Of a stretch of DNA of 64,000 nt, positions 45,996 to 55,233 are shown in pieces. Source of the DNA: a phage; NCBI GenBank assembly GCA_029220445.1, contig GCA_029220445.1_3666.1. One strand, written 5' to 3'. Under the pieces are notes generated by a model. It did no database searches. It had not been told where the DNA came from and saw only the letters and a program-made list of their open reading frames with translations. Every line of letters begins with the position of its first letter. The stretch's first letter is position 1. The position numbers and the translations under genes were made by a program.

Positions 45996-47261
45996 TTATT
46001 CCAGCACCTCCCAAGTTTCTGGATTAAGATTGCGGAATGCGATACCCACAGGGAATTGAGGCACACCGTCCACCGTACGCTGTTGGAATTTTATCGTGAT
46101 AAATTTGCCAACATATGAGCAGCATTTTTCGTAGTTCCTTACGGCAAAAGTGCCTTTCATTTTGCATTTGCATTGTGTCCCATCTTTCTCTTCGCAGATA
46201 AGAACACCTTCCCCGTTTTTATCTTTTTCAACACCGATCACTTTTGCTTCAACATCGGTGAACAGTTTCCACTTGAGCAGATCAGTAGAGCGTTGACCGT
46301 ATTCGTAGGTGCCACGGAAGTTACGAATAATAGATCCTTCATAACCTTCCTGCATGTACTGTCCGATGGAGTTGCGAACCTCTTCCTCGTTGTAGGCGAT
46401 CTTGAAAGGAACACCCTCGACGTTGGTGAGATGGTTAACTTCACAATAATCAATAACTTCCTGAAGATTTGTGGCCCGATCTTCCCAGCGATGGATGCAA
46501 TCAGGAACATCGAACACCATCAGTTTCAGGTCATAAGAGCAGTAACCTCCATACCGATCAGAATCACGGACAGGTTCTTCATAAACCGGATGATCAACCT
46601 TGTTGAAGTCTTTCCATGTCTCCTCTCCGGCCTTGATCGCTTTCTCACGGCGTTTTATGTCTGCCATGAAATCCTTATCAATTTCTTTCTCAATGTCTTC
46701 CAGACTACGCCATTTCTTAACGAGGGAGGTTATTTTCTGCAACGGTAAACCGTGAATGTAGAACTCCCCATCAAATTCATCAAAGCCTGTTTCTTCATGC
46801 AGGTCTTGTAGCTCACGGAGGATGTTACCTTTCGGCTCATACACTTTGTTACCGCGAGAGATGAATTTAGGTACACCGTCTACGAATTTGACAAAGCAAC
46901 GGTTCCCGTCAAGTTTGTGTTGCAGGTGGCATGGATACACAATAGCGTGTGGTTTTTTCGAAGCATCTTGCGCCAGCATAGGTGAAATGTCAATGGCCTC
47001 AAGGTCTTCGACATTTTCTTTGTAACCCAGCCGGACTTGCTTTTCCCATTTAGACTGCGCCTCTAAAACAGCTTGTTCTTCTGCTGTAGTTTCGTTGGAT
47101 CGCCCGATGTTTTTGGCTTCACATTTTGTGGTTTTTGATTGTACAGCGCCACCAACCCTGCCGAACACAACAATAACCTCGTTGCCGCTTGTATCTACTT
47201 TCCACATCTGGATGGACCCGTCTTTATTGCGAGCATAAAGTGTTGTTTTGAATTGATGCAT
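45996..47261 (-). CDS. ATP-dependent DNA ligase (421 aa)
   Basis: Motif I KLDGNR, motif IV EGSIIRN, motif V LLKWK. Confidence 0.7.
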   Translation of the reverse strand: MHQFKTTLYARNKDGSIQMWKVDTSGNEVIVVFGRVGGAVQSKTTKCEAKNIGRSNETTAEEQAVLEAQSKWEKQVRLGYKENVEDLEAIDISPMLAQDASKKPHAIVYPCHLQHKLDGNRCFVKFVDGVPKFISRGNKVYEPKGNILRELQDLHEETGFDEFDGEFYIHGLPLQKITSLVKKWRSLEDIEKEIDKDFMADIKRREKAIKAGEETWKDFNKVDHPVYEEPVRDSDRYGGYCSYDLKLMVFDVPDCIHRWEDRATNLQEVIDYCEVNHLTNVEGVPFKIAYNEEEVRNSIGQYMQEGYEGSIIRNFRGTYEYGQRSTDLLKWKLFTDVEAKVIGVEKDKNGEGVLICEEKDGTQCKCKMKGTFAVRNYEKCCSYVGKFITIKFQQRTVDGVPQFPVGIAFRNLNPETWEVLE

Positions 47262-47530
47262 TACTCTACCTCTTCCTTAAAAATTTTAAACATCTCTTCT
47301 TTACTCATTACCAACCAGTCACCCATAAAATCAACAAGCCAATCACCCTGGTACAAGACTAGGTTACCAAACGGCTCTACAAGCTCACACATACGACGAA
47401 GATCTCTGGTCCGAACAGGTGACGATGTAAACACACCTGTATCAATCCACCGTTGCAGATCAGATACTGATGAAGAGCTTCCGTCAAACTGGTGTGCTTC
47501 TACAGGTTTAGCAAGATTAAATAACGGCAT
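47261..47530 (-). CDS. hypothetical protein (89 aa)
   Basis: ORF with stop/start overlap to ligase. Confidence 0.45.
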   Translation of the reverse strand: MPLFNLAKPVEAHQFDGSSSSVSDLQRWIDTGVFTSSPVRTRDLRRMCELVEPFGNLVLYQGDWLVDFMGDWLVMSKEEMFKIFKEEVE

Positions 47531-47825
47531 TGCAGTCCTCCTTCTCTAATAGGTCTTTTATCGGGTAAACAAGCAGGTGTGGATCGTAATAATTTATAGT
47601 TTTATTCTGCCACACTATGAACTTAATTACAACTAAATTTACCACATCTTTATCTCCATGTAGTCCAACACACAGATTTGTCCATATTTTGTGGTTGAAT
47701 ACTTTGCTGTCGATGTAGATCTTAGTGTCAAACTTATCCTCTATCCTACCTATAAATTTAACCAATTCTTTCATCTGATCTCCAAACACAGCATCGTTTT
47801 CAAGATCTCTGGAGTGCTTGTACAT
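47517..47825 (-). CDS. hypothetical protein (102 aa)
   Basis: ORF on minus strand. Confidence 0.45.
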   Translation of the reverse strand: MYKHSRDLENDAVFGDQMKELVKFIGRIEDKFDTKIYIDSKVFNHKIWTNLCVGLHGDKDVVNLVVIKFIVWQNKTINYYDPHLLVYPIKDLLEKEDCNAVI

Positions 47826-47888
47826 AACTTTCTACCTCACTTGCATACTTTCCGAAACAAGTAAAGCCGGGTAATCCCGGCTATGTTG

Positions 47889-48602
47889 TTAAATATACTC
47901 TGTTACATCCTTGAAGCTCGAAGGCTTCATAATCTTACCTTTATTGTCAAGGAATATGATAACTTTATTACCGTTGTAGAATTCTTCCTTGGCAACAAAA
48001 CCTTCATATCGACCATCAAAGCGTCGTTCAAGATCTTTAATCTCCAACTCGATTAGTTGTTCAGCAGGCATATCTGCACTGGCACCGTGTGAATACCGTA
48101 GATGGTTGACCCGTGCAAACTTGCTGTCATTCGATTTGAGAACCTTACGCATCATCCCGCACACATCGCCGCGAAGCTGGAACAGCAAAGCTGTTGACAA
48201 CTCTGCTAAGCGGTAAGCAGACGCTCTTTGCTTAGAGGTGTTTTTCGCAGCGATCAGTGTATCATAGAACTCGCCGATCTTGAACTTAATACCTCGCGGA
48301 TTATCAAACAGGTTTGACCACTTTTCGTGATTATCATTAACAAGATAAGCGGCATAACTTGTGACAACGTGAAGATCGCAGGCCTCTTTTAGCAGGTGAT
48401 CTCCACCATCACCTTTCTCCAGCTCTTCCAAAACCTCATTGAACTCTTCCTCAATGAAGCTAAGCTGTAATTCGAATGGTGTGTATGATTTTTTCACTTT
48501 AGCTGCCACACGGTTCCAGTTTTCCACCCAATTGGCAGACCAAAGGTAGTTTTCAGGCTGAGACAGTTTTTCCAGGTTGTCGATCAGTTTAGTATTCAGC
48601 AT
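47889..48602 (-). CDS. MazG-like nucleotide pyrophosphohydrolase (237 aa), tentative
   Basis: EExxE ... ExxD pattern (FIEEEFNEVLEELEKGD...LKEACDL). Confidence 0.4.
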   Translation of the reverse strand: MLNTKLIDNLEKLSQPENYLWSANWVENWNRVAAKVKKSYTPFELQLSFIEEEFNEVLEELEKGDGGDHLLKEACDLHVVTSYAAYLVNDNHEKWSNLFDNPRGIKFKIGEFYDTLIAAKNTSKQRASAYRLAELSTALLFQLRGDVCGMMRKVLKSNDSKFARVNHLRYSHGASADMPAEQLIELEIKDLERRFDGRYEGFVAKEEFYNGNKVIIFLDNKGKIMKPSSFKDVTEYI

Positions 48603-48615
48603 TAAAGGTCTCCTT

Positions 48616-49377
48616 TTAAAGTTCCATAAAGTTTTCTACAGTTTCAATAAATGCTTTATCAGAGAAAGCGTCAACAGCACCGTTAAACCATACAGGGATC
48701 CCGCGATCCTCATATTGATAAAGGTCGCTACGTGAAATGCCACTTCCATCTGCACTCTGCGAATCATACTTGTTTACAATCAGCAGTTTTGTTCCTTTAC
48801 AAGTAGCAGGAAACAATTCCCAGTTAAAATTAATAACTGTGTTAGAACAACCCACTAGGATCACCATATCATTGCTGGTGAGAGATGTCAACAGGTCATA
48901 CATGTCTGTATACTTAGGAGCAACCTCACCGAAGAACACTACATTGGGCTTAACCCAAGTATACTTGCCTGTATCTACCTCCGTGTATCCGATATTTTTA
49001 ATTACATCATTACCTTCAGCATCTTCGTAGGTGATTTCAGGCAAATACCCGTGGACATGTAAAATATCTTCATGTTTTACACCAGCACGCTCCAGCAAAT
49101 CATCTACATTGGTGGTAAGGTTGATCACACGACCAGACCAGCGGGAATACCACTCAGCGATCCGAAGATGTGCAAGGTTAGGATCAACACTGCCCAGAGC
49201 TACACGACGTGCATTGTAAAAGTCATGCACCTTATAGTAGTTCTTGGCAAAGGTGTGGATGTTGCACACCTCATCGATGCTGAAATTCTCCCACATTGCA
49301 GTGCTACCAGATCGGAAGGTGGGAATACCAGATTCTGCGCTCAAACCAGCACCAGAAATAACAATAAGTCGTCGCAT
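48616..49377 (-). CDS. Sir2-family (sirtuin-like) NAD-dependent enzyme lacking the canonical Cys4 zinc ribbon (253 aa)
   Basis: GAGLSAESGIPTFR, FYNARR, TTNVDDLLERAG, HVHG, VVFFGE, ILVGCS in sirtuin order; no CxxC pairs between HG and VVFFGE. Confidence 0.7.
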   Translation of the reverse strand: MRRLIVISGAGLSAESGIPTFRSGSTAMWENFSIDEVCNIHTFAKNYYKVHDFYNARRVALGSVDPNLAHLRIAEWYSRWSGRVINLTTNVDDLLERAGVKHEDILHVHGYLPEITYEDAEGNDVIKNIGYTEVDTGKYTWVKPNVVFFGEVAPKYTDMYDLLTSLTSNDMVILVGCSNTVINFNWELFPATCKGTKLLIVNKYDSQSADGSGISRSDLYQYEDRGIPVWFNGAVDAFSDKAFIETVENFMEL

Positions 49378-49385
49378 AAATGTCC

Positions 49386-49736
49386 TTAGTAGATGTTTTG
49401 TTTGATCTCTATTCCAAACTTCTTGAATGAGTCAGCAGCAAGCATAAATTTACGAGCTGCCGATGGATTAGAAGTATGCACGAAAATAATCACGTTGTCA
49501 ATAAGTGGTGGCTTTCCGAATACAAGTTTCTCCTCTAGCGCAGAGAAGCAGTCGTACCCTTCAAGAACTTCACCTAGATCATTGTCAAAATACCATTCAG
49601 ATACGCGTCTGTAGAGCTTTCTCTTATCATTAAGAAAATCCATAAATTCAGAAGAATTCTTTAGCCACAGAGCGTCTGGGAGTCCATAATCTGACGGATC
49701 TCTAAAATCATCAAGCCACACAATCCACTTCTTCAT
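49386..49736 (-). CDS. hypothetical protein (116 aa)
   Basis: ATG 49736 with GAGGA RBS; IVWLDDFRDP ... FDNDLGE motifs, no family assigned. Confidence 0.5.
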   Translation of the reverse strand: MKKWIVWLDDFRDPSDYGLPDALWLKNSSEFMDFLNDKRKLYRRVSEWYFDNDLGEVLEGYDCFSALEEKLVFGKPPLIDNVIIFVHTSNPSAARKFMLAADSFKKFGIEIKQNIY

Positions 49737-50668
49737 TGCATATAGTCCTCGTTGTGGAAATAGCAGTCCAGTATCTCGCGACGCTCCTGCTCTAATAAGC
49801 AATTCCACACATCTTCTGTATAGTTGCTACGAATAAATTTTACCATACCGTAAAACTCCTCGTCAACACGTTTAAAAATATCGTCATCCCAAATCTTCCA
49901 TGCTTTACCTCTCATTACGGCCTTCCGTGCCAAATAGTATGGAGACTTGATCTTCAGCTGCAGGTCATAAGGGCAGTAAGGCTTACGGATCATATACCCT
50001 TCGCCCCTTGTTTCTGCAGCTAATTCTTTTGCATAGCTGAACGGGATTTCACGCACAGTGTGAGGACGTTTTGCACCAAGGTATTTGGCAATCCCATCTA
50101 AAGCTGCTTCTGGTAGCATTATTCCAGAATCATTATATCTGCAACCTATCAAATATGCGCCATGGTCTTCTTGAACAATATGCGGATCTGAAGGGTGACA
50201 AATTTCAAACATGAATGTCATGTTTTCATTGCCCATAACCTTCTTGATAAGATCTAAATTACCACATTGCTCTTGGATGGTTTCCTTTGCAAGGTTACAA
50301 TATGGAGAATCAAGAGACCCGGTTGTTGAGAACAATAGTTCACCTTTATGAGATGATACCACACCGAGGAATCCGTTCTTTTTCTCTACCGCAGTAACAA
50401 GTTTACTGTCCGGTAGGTTGGTGGAGTTTTCTCCTAAGTTGAATACTTTTGTGAAAGGCCATGCCACAACATTCCCCTCATTGCCAACAACAATACCTCG
50501 GCACTCCAGTAAACGCGGAGACAAATGCCACAGATTGTTGTAGAATACTTTTCTGGCATATTTATAGATCTTTAATCCAAGATCTGGATAATACCGACTG
50601 GTTACAAGACCTTTGTCTACTAGGTCATCTGCATTAAAATACTTCATCATACGTTCCTCATTTGTCAT
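49733..50668 (-). CDS. polynucleotide ligase of the covalent nucleotidyltransferase family, probable RNA ligase (311 aa)
   Basis: Motif I EKKNGF, motif IV EGYMIRK, motif V LQLKIK; divergent from kinase/phosphatase genes. Confidence 0.5.
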   Translation of the reverse strand: MTNEERMMKYFNADDLVDKGLVTSRYYPDLGLKIYKYARKVFYNNLWHLSPRLLECRGIVVGNEGNVVAWPFTKVFNLGENSTNLPDSKLVTAVEKKNGFLGVVSSHKGELLFSTTGSLDSPYCNLAKETIQEQCGNLDLIKKVMGNENMTFMFEICHPSDPHIVQEDHGAYLIGCRYNDSGIMLPEAALDGIAKYLGAKRPHTVREIPFSYAKELAAETRGEGYMIRKPYCPYDLQLKIKSPYYLARKAVMRGKAWKIWDDDIFKRVDEEFYGMVKFIRSNYTEDVWNCLLEQERREILDCYFHNEDYMQ

Positions 50669-50768
50669 TTTGTCAGTCTATCCTGCCACACAAATAACCT
50701 AGTGTCAACACTTGAAATTAACAAAACAGTTAGGTATACTATCATTAAAATTAAAACGGAGGATTGCT

Positions 50769-51179
50769 ATGTCTAAAATGCTATATATCGTGCGTGGTCT
50801 GCCAGGGTCTGGCAAATCAACACTGGCAAATGCGCTATCTTTAGAAGGTCTGTATCCACATTTTGAGAACGACATGTTCTGGTATGACGATGACGGCAAT
50901 TACAACTGGGATGCAAGTAAAGTAACACTCGCAGCAAAATGGTGCAAAGATAACGTAGAAGATATGATGAGTATGGGATACGACCGTATCGTGGTAAGTA
51001 ATACGTTTACAAAAGAAAAACATGTGCAGGAATATGTTGACATGGCAATCAGTCATGGGTATAGTTATACCGTGATCGTGGTTGAAAACCGCCACGGTAA
51101 TAAAAGCATTCATGATGTTCCAGACAAGGTTGTGGATCGTATGGAACGCCAGCTTAAAAACTGCATTAAACTTAAATGA
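50769..51179 (+). CDS. polynucleotide 5'-kinase-like P-loop kinase (137 aa)
   Basis: Walker A GLPGSGKST and VVSNTFT block resemble T4 Pnk kinase domain; ATG 50769 with GGAGG RBS. Confidence 0.6.
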   Translation: MSKMLYIVRGLPGSGKSTLANALSLEGLYPHFENDMFWYDDDGNYNWDASKVTLAAKWCKDNVEDMMSMGYDRIVVSNTFTKEKHVQEYVDMAISHGYSYTVIVVENRHGNKSIHDVPDKVVDRMERQLKNCIKLK

Positions 51180-51186
51180 GGAATGT

Positions 51187-51741
51187 ATGAAATACTTTGT
51201 AACAAGCGACACACACTTTCTCCACCAGCGGGTCATGGAGTTTGATTCATGTCAAAAACACAGATCTCAGTATGATCACAATCTTGACAGTATGAATGCG
51301 GGAATCATCGCCGAGTGGAACTCTGTTGTGTCACCTGCAGACACTGTGTTCCACTTGGGAGATATTGCGTGCACTAATGATAAGAATATCAACAAATTAC
51401 TTCCAGATATTCTAGATATGTTGAACGGACATATTATTCTTGTTCGTGGCAACCATGACACAAGGACGACTGTCAGAATTATGAAAGAGTTCTATCACGA
51501 GGTTGTAGATTATTACGAGCTTCGCCACAACAAGAATTTGATCTGTATGAGCCATTACCAATTTGCAAAGTGGAACAGAAAGCCTCACGGATCAGTCCAA
51601 CTGTTCGGTCATGCTCACGGAACCACACAACAGTTGTTTGGCAGGCAGCTTGATGTCGGTTGGGATGTGTGGGGGAGACTCTTACCATTAGAAGAGGCAT
51701 ACCGTACTGCAATGAGTTTTGATATTGACAGCAGGGAGTAA
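51187..51741 (+). CDS. calcineurin-like metallophosphoesterase (185 aa)
   Basis: SDTHF, GD, GNHD, GHAHG motifs; ATG 51187 with GAGGA RBS. Confidence 0.65.
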   Translation: MKYFVTSDTHFLHQRVMEFDSCQKHRSQYDHNLDSMNAGIIAEWNSVVSPADTVFHLGDIACTNDKNINKLLPDILDMLNGHIILVRGNHDTRTTVRIMKEFYHEVVDYYELRHNKNLICMSHYQFAKWNRKPHGSVQLFGHAHGTTQQLFGRQLDVGWDVWGRLLPLEEAYRTAMSFDIDSRE

Positions 51742-55129: not shown

Positions 55130-55226
55130 GCTAGGTAAGCCCTTTGGCAAGGGCGAGGATTTTTAATCCTGAAAATAGACGAGGTAGTCGTTGAATACAT
55201 AGGTGGTTCGATTCCATCACCTAGCA
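55130..55226 (+). tRNA. atypical tRNA-like element (97 nt): normal acceptor, D and T arms, 4-bp anticodon stem with loop tttttaa (UUU, Lys-like) and ~30-nt extra arm; may be a pseudogene
   Basis: Acceptor gctaggt/acctagc perfect; D arm gccc-tttggcaa-gggc; T arm ggtgg-ttcgatt-ccatc; no CCA. Confidence 0.35.
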
Positions 55227-55233
55227 CCTTTTT

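Follow-up and report, generated by a model that had tools for sequence, protein, structure and literature searches.

A zinc-free sirtuin encoded among predicted RNA-repair genes of an rV5-like phage: a candidate for an NAD+-dependent step of RNA repair

We analyzed a 64,000-nucleotide stretch of phage DNA (GenBank assembly GCA_029220445.1, contig GCA_029220445.1_3666.1; hereafter the window), focusing on a sirtuin gene at 48616-49377 and the genes around it. In a megablast search, positions 47000-51000 aligned along their whole length (100% of the query) with Escherichia phage V5 (rV5, NC_011041; Vequintavirus) at 99.7% identity, and 121 related records matched the same segment. Three minus-strand open reading frames (ORFs), 47889-48602, 48616-49377, and 49386-49736, are rv5_gp081, rv5_gp080, and rv5_gp079 of NC_011041, where their products are named 'nucleotide pyrophosphohydrolase', 'Sir2 (NAD-dependent deacetylase)', and 'hypothetical protein'. 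They lie downstream of rv5_gp078 (49733-50668, also on the minus strand), which encodes an Rnl1-family RNA ligase and is the first gene of the unit. The start of gp079 overlaps the stop of gp078 by 4 nt in rV5, and gaps of 8 nt and 13 nt separate gp079 from gp080 and gp080 from gp081. Transcribed divergently from this unit are gp077 (50769-51179, plus strand), encoding a P-loop polynucleotide-kinase-like protein, and gp076 (51187-51741, plus strand), encoding a calcineurin-like metallophosphoesterase. A tRNA array begins about 3 kb past these two genes, 5.3 kb from the sirtuin.

The product of gp080 (253 amino acids) is a true sirtuin by sequence and by modeled fold. It matched Pfam SIR2 (PF02146) with E=6.9e-28 and 98 bits (cut-off 24) and phrog_2162 with E=2e-108; its best sequence match among solved structures was E. 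coli CobB (1s5p, E=2.4e-21). The motifs GAGLSAESGIPTFR, FYNARR, PNLAH, TTNVD, HVHG, KPNVVFFGE, and LVGCSNTV follow one another in this order, and none of the 35 residues separating HVHG from KPNVVFFGE is a Cys. Both observations agree with a sequence-only reading of this stretch, which had described sirtuin motifs in order and no Cys4 zinc ribbon. In 120 homologues, the segment between HG and VVFFGE (31-39 residues) has at most one Cys, apart from a single homologue with two. The CxxC...CxxC arrangement occurs in none of them, whereas a [DN][IV]GY motif is conserved. An AlphaFold2 model built on 40 diverse homologues (pLDDT 89.5, pTM 0.88) recovered the Sir2 Rossmann fold that had been anticipated, with a confident β-hairpin (strands 110-118 and 124-128) at the zinc-ribbon position. 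The top 50 Foldseek matches of this model in the PDB were all sirtuins, led by CobB, Sir2Af1, and SIRT5 at TM scores of about 0.72-0.75.

The catalytic His and the NAD loop, on which the first assignment leaned, proved invariant in the alignment of 40 diverse homologues: G9, A10, G11, S16, F21, and R22 of the loop, N90 and D92, and H109-G110 were all kept, and NAD+-dependent catalysis is predicted. Also invariant were Tyr54 and Arg57, the class III pair; the FYNARR motif aligns with FYNARR of CobB and FYHYRR of SIRT5, with Y54 and R57 corresponding to SIRT5 Y102 and R105. We take H109, N90, and D92 to be the counterparts of SIRT5 H158, N141, and D143. The substrate side is altered. When 66 loci were reduced to 25 sirtuin lineages at 80% identity, TTNVD replaced the near-universal TQNID in 23, and these 23 are zinc-free; the other two lineages are canonical sirtuins that fall outside the clade. 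Where the zinc-free clade is represented in enterobacterial phages, GCSNxVINFNW stands in place of GTSxxVYPAA. The clade is acidic, with a median isoelectric point (pI) of 5.2.

Two known classes of sirtuin were considered and set aside. In class M sirtuins (the SirTM ADP-ribosyltransferases), QG replaces HG and a macrodomain is linked by operon or fusion (PMC4518038); gp080 has HG, and no macrodomain occurs among its neighbors, so class M is ruled out. A defense-type NADase of the ThsA/DSR kind, offered as a lead in the sequence-only reading, was not borne out: SIR2_2 matched only at a sub-threshold E=0.097, no PADLOC SIR2 model matched, and the class III deacylases CobB and SIRT5 were nearest. 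Furthermore, gp080 is single-domain, and SLOG, HerA, and pAgo, the partners of defense SIR2s, were not among its neighbors.

With CobB and SIRT5 as the top matches in both sequence and fold, gp080 might be an ordinary lysine deacylase (deacetylase, desuccinylase, or demalonylase) captured from a bacterium, stripping inhibitory acylations off proteins of the host or the phage during infection, and lying next to RNA-repair genes through the dense packing of auxiliary genes. The GAG loop, Asn90, Asp92, His109, and VVFFGE, all invariant, would suit such an enzyme, yet characterized deacylase sirtuins without exception keep a zinc site, and this site is lost throughout the clade. The invariant Tyr/Arg pair is a binder of acidic acyl groups and the charge is acidic, like that of the CobB core; against this, Thr invariably stands where TQNID has its near-universal Gln, and another sequence takes the place of the VYPAA loop on the substrate side. 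The scores against the NCBIfam CobB models are about half of the cut-offs or less (NF001753, 123 vs. 243 bits; NF040867, 105 vs. 320). A motif scan of 185,579 bacterial and archaeal species, with one genome per species, found two loci of the zinc-free clade, one of them (L078) in a T4-like gene context. The clade is therefore essentially confined to phages, and its near-absence from cellular genomes indicates that gp080 is not a recently borrowed host CobB. The variation of the genomic neighbors by phage group and the occurrence of the repair cassette without an adjacent sirtuin, both described below, would fit a deacylase, whereas the recurrence of RNA-end or NAD/ADP-ribose-processing neighbors in three phage groups (including those of PMC9503650) counts against one. 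On balance, we consider a deacylase, the main rival of the reading preferred below, rather unlikely.

The 116-amino-acid product of gp079, which had been left unassigned, matched the cREC_REC family (PF20274) with E=9.1e-14 and 52.3 bits against a cut-off of 27, as well as phrog_1479. This length counts from an ATG; a GTG at 49808 would give 140 amino acids. The acidic/Thr motifs WLDD, FDNDLG, and HTSNP were kept in all nine distinct homologues inspected. By these matches, gp079 is a member of the receiver-fold cREC family and a predicted cyclic-phosphate phosphoesterase. Membership of this family is marked by conserved acidic residues and by an RNA-repair setting that never includes a histidine kinase; the gene of gp079 borders that of an RNA ligase. 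The domain was defined as a predicted cyclic-phosphate-processing receiver domain (Iyer et al., 2021), and it is predicted to act on cyclic ADP-ribose phosphate too (PMC9503650, PMC7824862). The ligase gp078 matched PF09511 (E=1.1e-14) and phrog_562 (E=9e-66), and at 37.5 bits it fell far under the T4 RnlA equivalog cut-off of 242. Matches of gp077 were to AAA_33 (E=4e-10), phrog_2071, and phrog_505 'polynucleotide kinase' (E=4e-10), and those of gp076 to Metallophos (E=1.7e-6) and phrog_547 (E=5e-51). Adjacent rV5 genes thus encode an Rnl1-family ligase, a 5'-kinase, and a 3'-end phosphoesterase, each activity being predicted, and this trio is kept in six lineages. The RNA-repair module that had been suspected beside the sirtuin can now be given as ligase, cREC, kinase, and phosphoesterase genes.

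The remark in the sequence-only reading that function cannot be inferred understates what has been published. Iyer, Burroughs, Anantharaman, and Aravind (2022; Viruses 14:1977, PMC9503650, section 3.7.3) described a type 2 neighborhood, with phage V5 and Proteus phage Mydo as prototypes, that contains a sirtuin, a T4-like tRNA ligase, cREC, a nucleotide kinase, a MazG pyrophosphatase, and sometimes a phosphoesterase of the calcineurin-like kind. They placed the same sirtuin clade in two further contexts, one in jumbo phages (with 2H, Nudix-cREC, and PIN) and one in SP15/T5-like phages (with a 'Swiss-army-knife' HAD phosphatase), and proposed that the sirtuin is KptA-like and removes 2'-phosphates from RNA.

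Our preferred reading, which we hold tentatively and place ahead of a CobB-like deacylase as the best single hypothesis, is that heal-and-seal RNA repair in the phage draws its NAD+-dependent step, a KptA-like removal of 2'-phosphate, from gp080. Gene identities, fold, conserved residues, and arrangement were observed; every catalytic step is inferred. The substrate would most likely be tRNA cut by host anticodon nucleases, with 2',3'-cyclic phosphate and 5'-OH ends. The 5'-OH would be phosphorylated by gp077, and the cyclic phosphate would be opened by the cREC protein gp079 to leave a 2'-phosphate and a 3'-OH. The ligase gp078 would then seal the break, with the 2'-phosphate remaining at the junction. 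In a Tpt1/KptA-style reaction, gp080 would remove this phosphate: a phosphate oxygen would attack C1'' of NAD+ and nicotinamide would leave, after which His109 would activate the ribose 2''-OH to attack the phosphate, giving 2'-OH RNA and ADP-ribose 1'',2''-cyclic phosphate. The anionic group may be held by the invariant class III Tyr54/Arg57. The ADP-ribose cyclic phosphate would finally be degraded by cREC, by the metallophosphoesterase, or by both.

Several observations favor this reading. The order and spacing of the genes in rV5 and the Pfam identities of ligase, cREC, kinase, and phosphoesterase match such a route. The residues of NAD chemistry are kept while the score lies far under the NCBIfam CobB cut-off (123 vs. 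243 bits), and the loss of Cys4 and the changes from TQNID to TTNVD and from GTSxxVYPAA to GCSNxVINFNW are consistent with a changed substrate. The mechanisms of sirtuins and Tpt1 are chemically parallel. No KptA/Tpt1, macro, or Nudix gene was found among the annotations of the rV5 parts examined. RNA-end-processing neighbors occur in about nine of the 23 zinc-free lineages; six of them have ligase, kinase, and phosphoesterase genes no more than 3 kb from the sirtuin, and three more have HAD_SAK_2, the 'Swiss-army-knife' RNA-repair phosphatase, there. The jumbo-phage neighborhood with 2H, Nudix-cREC, and PIN is a third, independent context (PMC9503650). The sirtuin also shares a genome with a cREC-phosphoesterase-ligase-kinase cassette in a Phapecoctavirus, phage UP17. 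There, cREC, phosphoesterase, Rnl1, kinase, a DNA ligase, and a gp081-like gene are intact in that order at 40-46 kb, and the sirtuin is about 33 kb away.

Across the 23 zinc-free lineages, neighbors were counted by Pfam family among co-directional ORFs that encode at least 100 amino acids and lie no more than 3 kb from the sirtuin. The counts were 8 for ATP-dependent DNA ligase, 6 each for NrdD, RNA_lig_T4_1, AAA_33, and Metallophos, 5 for DUF7275/DUF7277, and 3 each for HAD_SAK_2, cREC, and PRA-PH.

Other parts of this survey, and some properties of the protein itself, weigh against a role in RNA repair. The order shared by the six to seven lineages with the rV5 arrangement is largely a matter of common descent, because these are related phages; the six with the ligase cassette are 135-150-kb myoviruses. 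In eight phAPEC8-like lineages the sirtuin adjoins a methyltransferase-like protein and proteins with no assigned function. In two T4-like contigs (L068:6057-8705 and L078:3664-7723) it follows NAMPT, an enzyme of nicotinamide salvage, and precedes EndoVII and NrdD. A 145-kb relative keeps the repair cassette with small ORFs only in the sirtuin slot. T5 carries the sirtuin and HAD_SAK_2, and tblastn with the rV5 ligase, cREC, and kinase found no match in its positions 1-65 kb; without such a ligase, no junction bearing a 2'-phosphate would be made. If the metallophosphoesterase took the cyclic phosphate off completely, as it could, there would be no need for a Tpt1-like step. Like real deacylases, gp080 has an intact VVFFGE motif of the acyl-lysine tunnel and an intact class III Tyr/Arg pair, and its acidic clade has undergone no shift to an RNA-binding charge. 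E. coli also encodes its own KptA. In the literature we found no experiment on phage sirtuins, on cREC, or on an equivalence of sirtuin and KptA, and no sirtuin shown to act on RNA.

Since the sirtuin lies apart from the cassette, or occurs without it, in some phages, it is a movable gene and not an obligatorily operonic one. Sirtuin and repair cassette co-occur at the level of the genome in several groups, and the link is looser than the rV5 locus suggests.

Candidates for concealed relatives were sought in some of these contexts. The phAPEC8-like neighbors were considered as hidden RNA-repair enzymes and rejected; they had no Pfam matches and showed none of the motifs of 2H, Nudix, HAD, or P-loop proteins. 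One of their clusters is cytosine-methyltransferase-like, with FDGSG and PPC motifs, and another is highly acidic. Two lineages with the order ligase-kinase-sirtuin and no cREC encode a conserved protein of 161-162 amino acids between kinase and sirtuin (L053:7079-7564, L051:7302-7790). An identity as NADAR was not supported for this protein in the cREC slot, with no Pfam match, a non-significant BLASTP E=0.39 to a NADAR protein, and no PDB match. On a 607-kb viral contig (L070:5582-8708), genes for an Rnl1-family RNA ligase and an arginase-family protein are followed, two genes downstream, by a canonical TQNID sirtuin that falls outside the zinc-free clade; this may be an independent association of sirtuin and RNA ligase. 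In Phapecoctavirus UP17, the co-directional run that holds the sirtuin also includes, about 4 kb upstream of it, a small gene (L005:2918-3193) for an Acb2/Tad1 hairpin domain of the anti-CBASS/anti-Thoeris sponge family.

Genes of NAD metabolism also occur near members of the clade. The full order in one T4-like contig (L078) is NADAR, a 240-amino-acid protein, NAMPT, an 85-amino-acid protein, the sirtuin, EndoVII, and NrdD. In Mydovirus-like and 145-152-kb phages, a pair of genes for an NAPRTase-family protein and a Prs-like pyrophosphokinase is divergent from the cREC/RNA-repair block (L003:1-2133, L080:2376-5107, L081:1642-4539). The pair resembles the NARP1-like reconstitution of NAD+, and the first of these contigs carries a NADAR gene a few kb downstream of it. 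No NAPRTase or Prs-like genes were found among the annotations of the rV5 parts examined. A paper on NARP3 (PMC13464706) deals with PnuC/NadR and has no bearing on gp080.

These contexts raise the question of another use of NAD+, either the ADP-ribosylation of a host protein or nucleic-acid end, for take-over or counter-defense, or the turnover of NAD or ADP-ribose small molecules, with nicotinamide recycled by phage salvage enzymes where present. Such a role would account for a sirtuin placed just downstream of NAMPT in two T4-like contigs (with one 85-amino-acid ORF between them, and a NADAR gene, in L078) and for NAPRTase, Prs-like, and NADAR genes within 5-6 kb in Mydovirus-like and related contigs; in rV5, however, no NAD salvage genes are annotated in the parts examined. 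The altered substrate-side motifs fit a substrate other than acyl-lysine, and cREC has a second predicted substrate in cyclic ADP-ribose phosphate (PMC9503650, PMC7824862). On the other hand, gp080 is not of class M, having HG and not QG and no linked macrodomain, and it has no match to defense-type SIR2 models. Its invariant His serves the second, 2'-OH-dependent step, which a pure NADase or ADP-ribosyltransferase would not need. We regard this use of NAD+ as unlikely.

The product of gp081 (47889-48602, 237 amino acids) was expected to be a MazG-like pyrophosphohydrolase, and an all-α NTP pyrophosphatase it is. As a single sequence it matched Pfam PRA-PH at E=0.099 only; of the 58 members of its family, 43 matched PRA-PH and 14 matched MazG at E<0.01. 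These two were the only NTP-pyrophosphatase Pfam families at E<=0.01 among the 58 members, and no dUTPase family was listed. The protein has an invariant EExxE...ExxD metal motif and a four-helix core. Sequence searches of the PDB gave no match with the single sequence and weak HisE matches with the family profile (E=0.008). Its fold is nearest to dimeric dUTPases, with a β-hairpin extension at the C-terminus, and no dUTPase was found among the annotations of the rV5 parts examined.

The sequence-only reading had proposed to follow the three genes through related phages, and there the MazG-like gene travels with an ATP-dependent DNA ligase and not with the sirtuin. In the window this ligase is rv5_gp084 (45996-47261, minus strand; DNA_ligase_A_M and OB_2), the persistent syntenic partner of gp081-like genes. 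The Mydovirus-like order is sirtuin, DNA ligase, a gp083-like gene, one or two small genes, and the gp081-like gene. Three distant gp081 homologues (25-28% identity) follow an ATP-dependent DNA ligase at a distance of one to three genes, and neither a sirtuin nor an RNA ligase was seen around them. From these two arrangements we conclude that the adjacency of gp081 and the sirtuin is a Vequintavirus rearrangement. In the Phapecoctavirus, ligase and gp081-like gene remain together, with the sirtuin 33 kb off.

It might still be argued that gp081 is the working partner of the sirtuin and cleaves the pyrophosphate of a by-product derived from ADP-ribose, as Nudix does in other phage sirtuin neighborhoods. 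In rV5 it starts 13 nt downstream of the sirtuin and is followed by a hairpin, and it is listed in the neighborhood by Iyer et al. (2022). A gp081-like gene is also found within about 3 kb of the sirtuin in seven lineages, but in all seven it comes after the DNA ligase and not after the sirtuin. The distant homologues remain linked to a DNA ligase although neither a sirtuin nor an RNA ligase is close by, the Phapecoctavirus separates the two genes, and the fold, together with the lack of an annotated dUTPase in the rV5 parts examined, points elsewhere. Since gp081 tracks the DNA ligase, it is probably not the functional partner of the sirtuin, and we find that role improbable. Most likely, gp081 is a dUTPase-like nucleotide-pool enzyme linked to replication, as predicted from its fold and synteny.

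The hairpin lies at 47865-47882 (minus strand), 6 nt past the gp081 stop, as a perfect, G+C-rich AGCCGGG-ATTA-CCCGGCT with a 7-bp stem (6 GC pairs) and a T-rich tail on both strands; RefSeq has no terminator there. It could tentatively mark the end of a ligase-cREC-Sir2-gp081 transcription unit, possibly as a bidirectional terminator, and this is tentative because terminator-like sites in the region are no more numerous than expected by chance. At the other end, the divergent intergenic region between RNA ligase and kinase (50669-50768) is the presumed promoter region, with sigma-70-like matches on the plus strand at 50712-50745. The assignment is positional, as promoter counts in the region do not exceed the shuffled expectation.

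Within the tRNA array, between tRNA-Ser and tRNA-Thr, lies a tRNA-like gene at 55130-55228 (plus strand), a seventh where RefSeq rV5 has six. ARAGORN reported it as 'tRNA-???' with a 4-base anticodon (atcc) and 99 nt, and with Rfam tRNA it scored 35.5 bits, above the gathering score of 29. Candidates for it are a tRNA like a frameshift suppressor, one that bears an intron, and one that has decayed. Eighteen 'Campylobacter phage' records (MG065654-MG065682; host Campylobacter jejuni) showed 96-97% identity to this rV5-type E. coli phage region; either their host assignment seems doubtful or they are contaminating coliphages.

Part of this was already known. Annotation of the sirtuin gene goes back to the rV5 genome record, and both neighborhood and hypothesis appeared in print in 2022. 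What is new here is the sequence signature and model of the clade, its near-confinement to phages, the finding that sirtuin and MazG-like gene are uncoupled, and the looser link of sirtuin and cassette. Our results weaken the account of Iyer et al. (2022) in two respects, since it is the DNA ligase that the MazG-like gene tracks, and since the sirtuin is movable, so that the operon evidence is thinner than this one locus would suggest.

The RNA-repair reading can be taken further, with correspondingly more doubt. In this form the zinc-free clade would act on RNA phosphate and never on acyl-lysine; it would be the first sirtuin RNA 2'-phosphotransferase, replacing Tpt1/KptA in a fungal-type tRNA repair against anticodon nucleases. 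A more speculative variant would have the zinc-free sirtuin clear tRNA 3' ends that host toxins have phosphorylated or pyrophosphorylated. If RNA repair is the right reading, nucleic-acid phosphates would join protein acyl groups as targets of sirtuin chemistry, phages would have a complete NAD+-dependent route of tRNA repair against anticodon nucleases, and two current themes of phage-host conflict, tRNA cleavage and NAD+ depletion, would be linked. If gp080 is a deacylase, large virulent phages (T5, rV5, and relatives) would remodel host protein acylation. In either case the clade is widespread in easily manipulated model coliphages, and the question is directly testable.

Compared with known systems, the type 2 neighborhood of Iyer et al. 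(2022) is the same object as the rV5 locus, and nothing in the locus differs from it. CobB and SIRT5 (class III) share with gp080 the Rossmann fold, the GAGxS...FR loop, the Asn and Asp of NID, the catalytic His, VVxFGE, and the Tyr/Arg pair; unlike them, gp080 lacks Cys4, has Thr for the conserved Gln (SIRT5 Q140), has a replaced VYPAA loop, and belongs to a phage-restricted clade. For gp081, the families compared were the dimeric dUTPases (staphylococcal phage Dut and the Campylobacter and Leishmania dUTPases) and MazG/HisE, from which it differs by a conserved C-terminal extension with a β-hairpin and the invariant residues N158, K161, Y199, K223, and K226. Tpt1/KptA enzymes release nicotinamide and ADP-ribose 1'',2''-cyclic phosphate, and they work in fungal and plant tRNA splicing in a pathway with a kinase, a cyclic phosphodiesterase, and an Rnl1-family ligase. 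Their job, the NAD+-dependent removal of the junction 2'-phosphate, is the one proposed for gp080, whereas the folds are unrelated (Tpt1 belongs to the ADP-ribosyltransferase superfamily and gp080 has the sirtuin Rossmann fold), and the likeness would be a functional analogy only. T4 Pnkp and Rnl1, which counter the PrrC anticodon nuclease, resemble the rV5 set as a phage-encoded 5'-kinase, 3'-end phosphoesterase, and Rnl1-family ligase; in rV5, in contrast, kinase and phosphatase are separate proteins, the phosphatase is calcineurin-like and not HAD, and cREC and a sirtuin are added.

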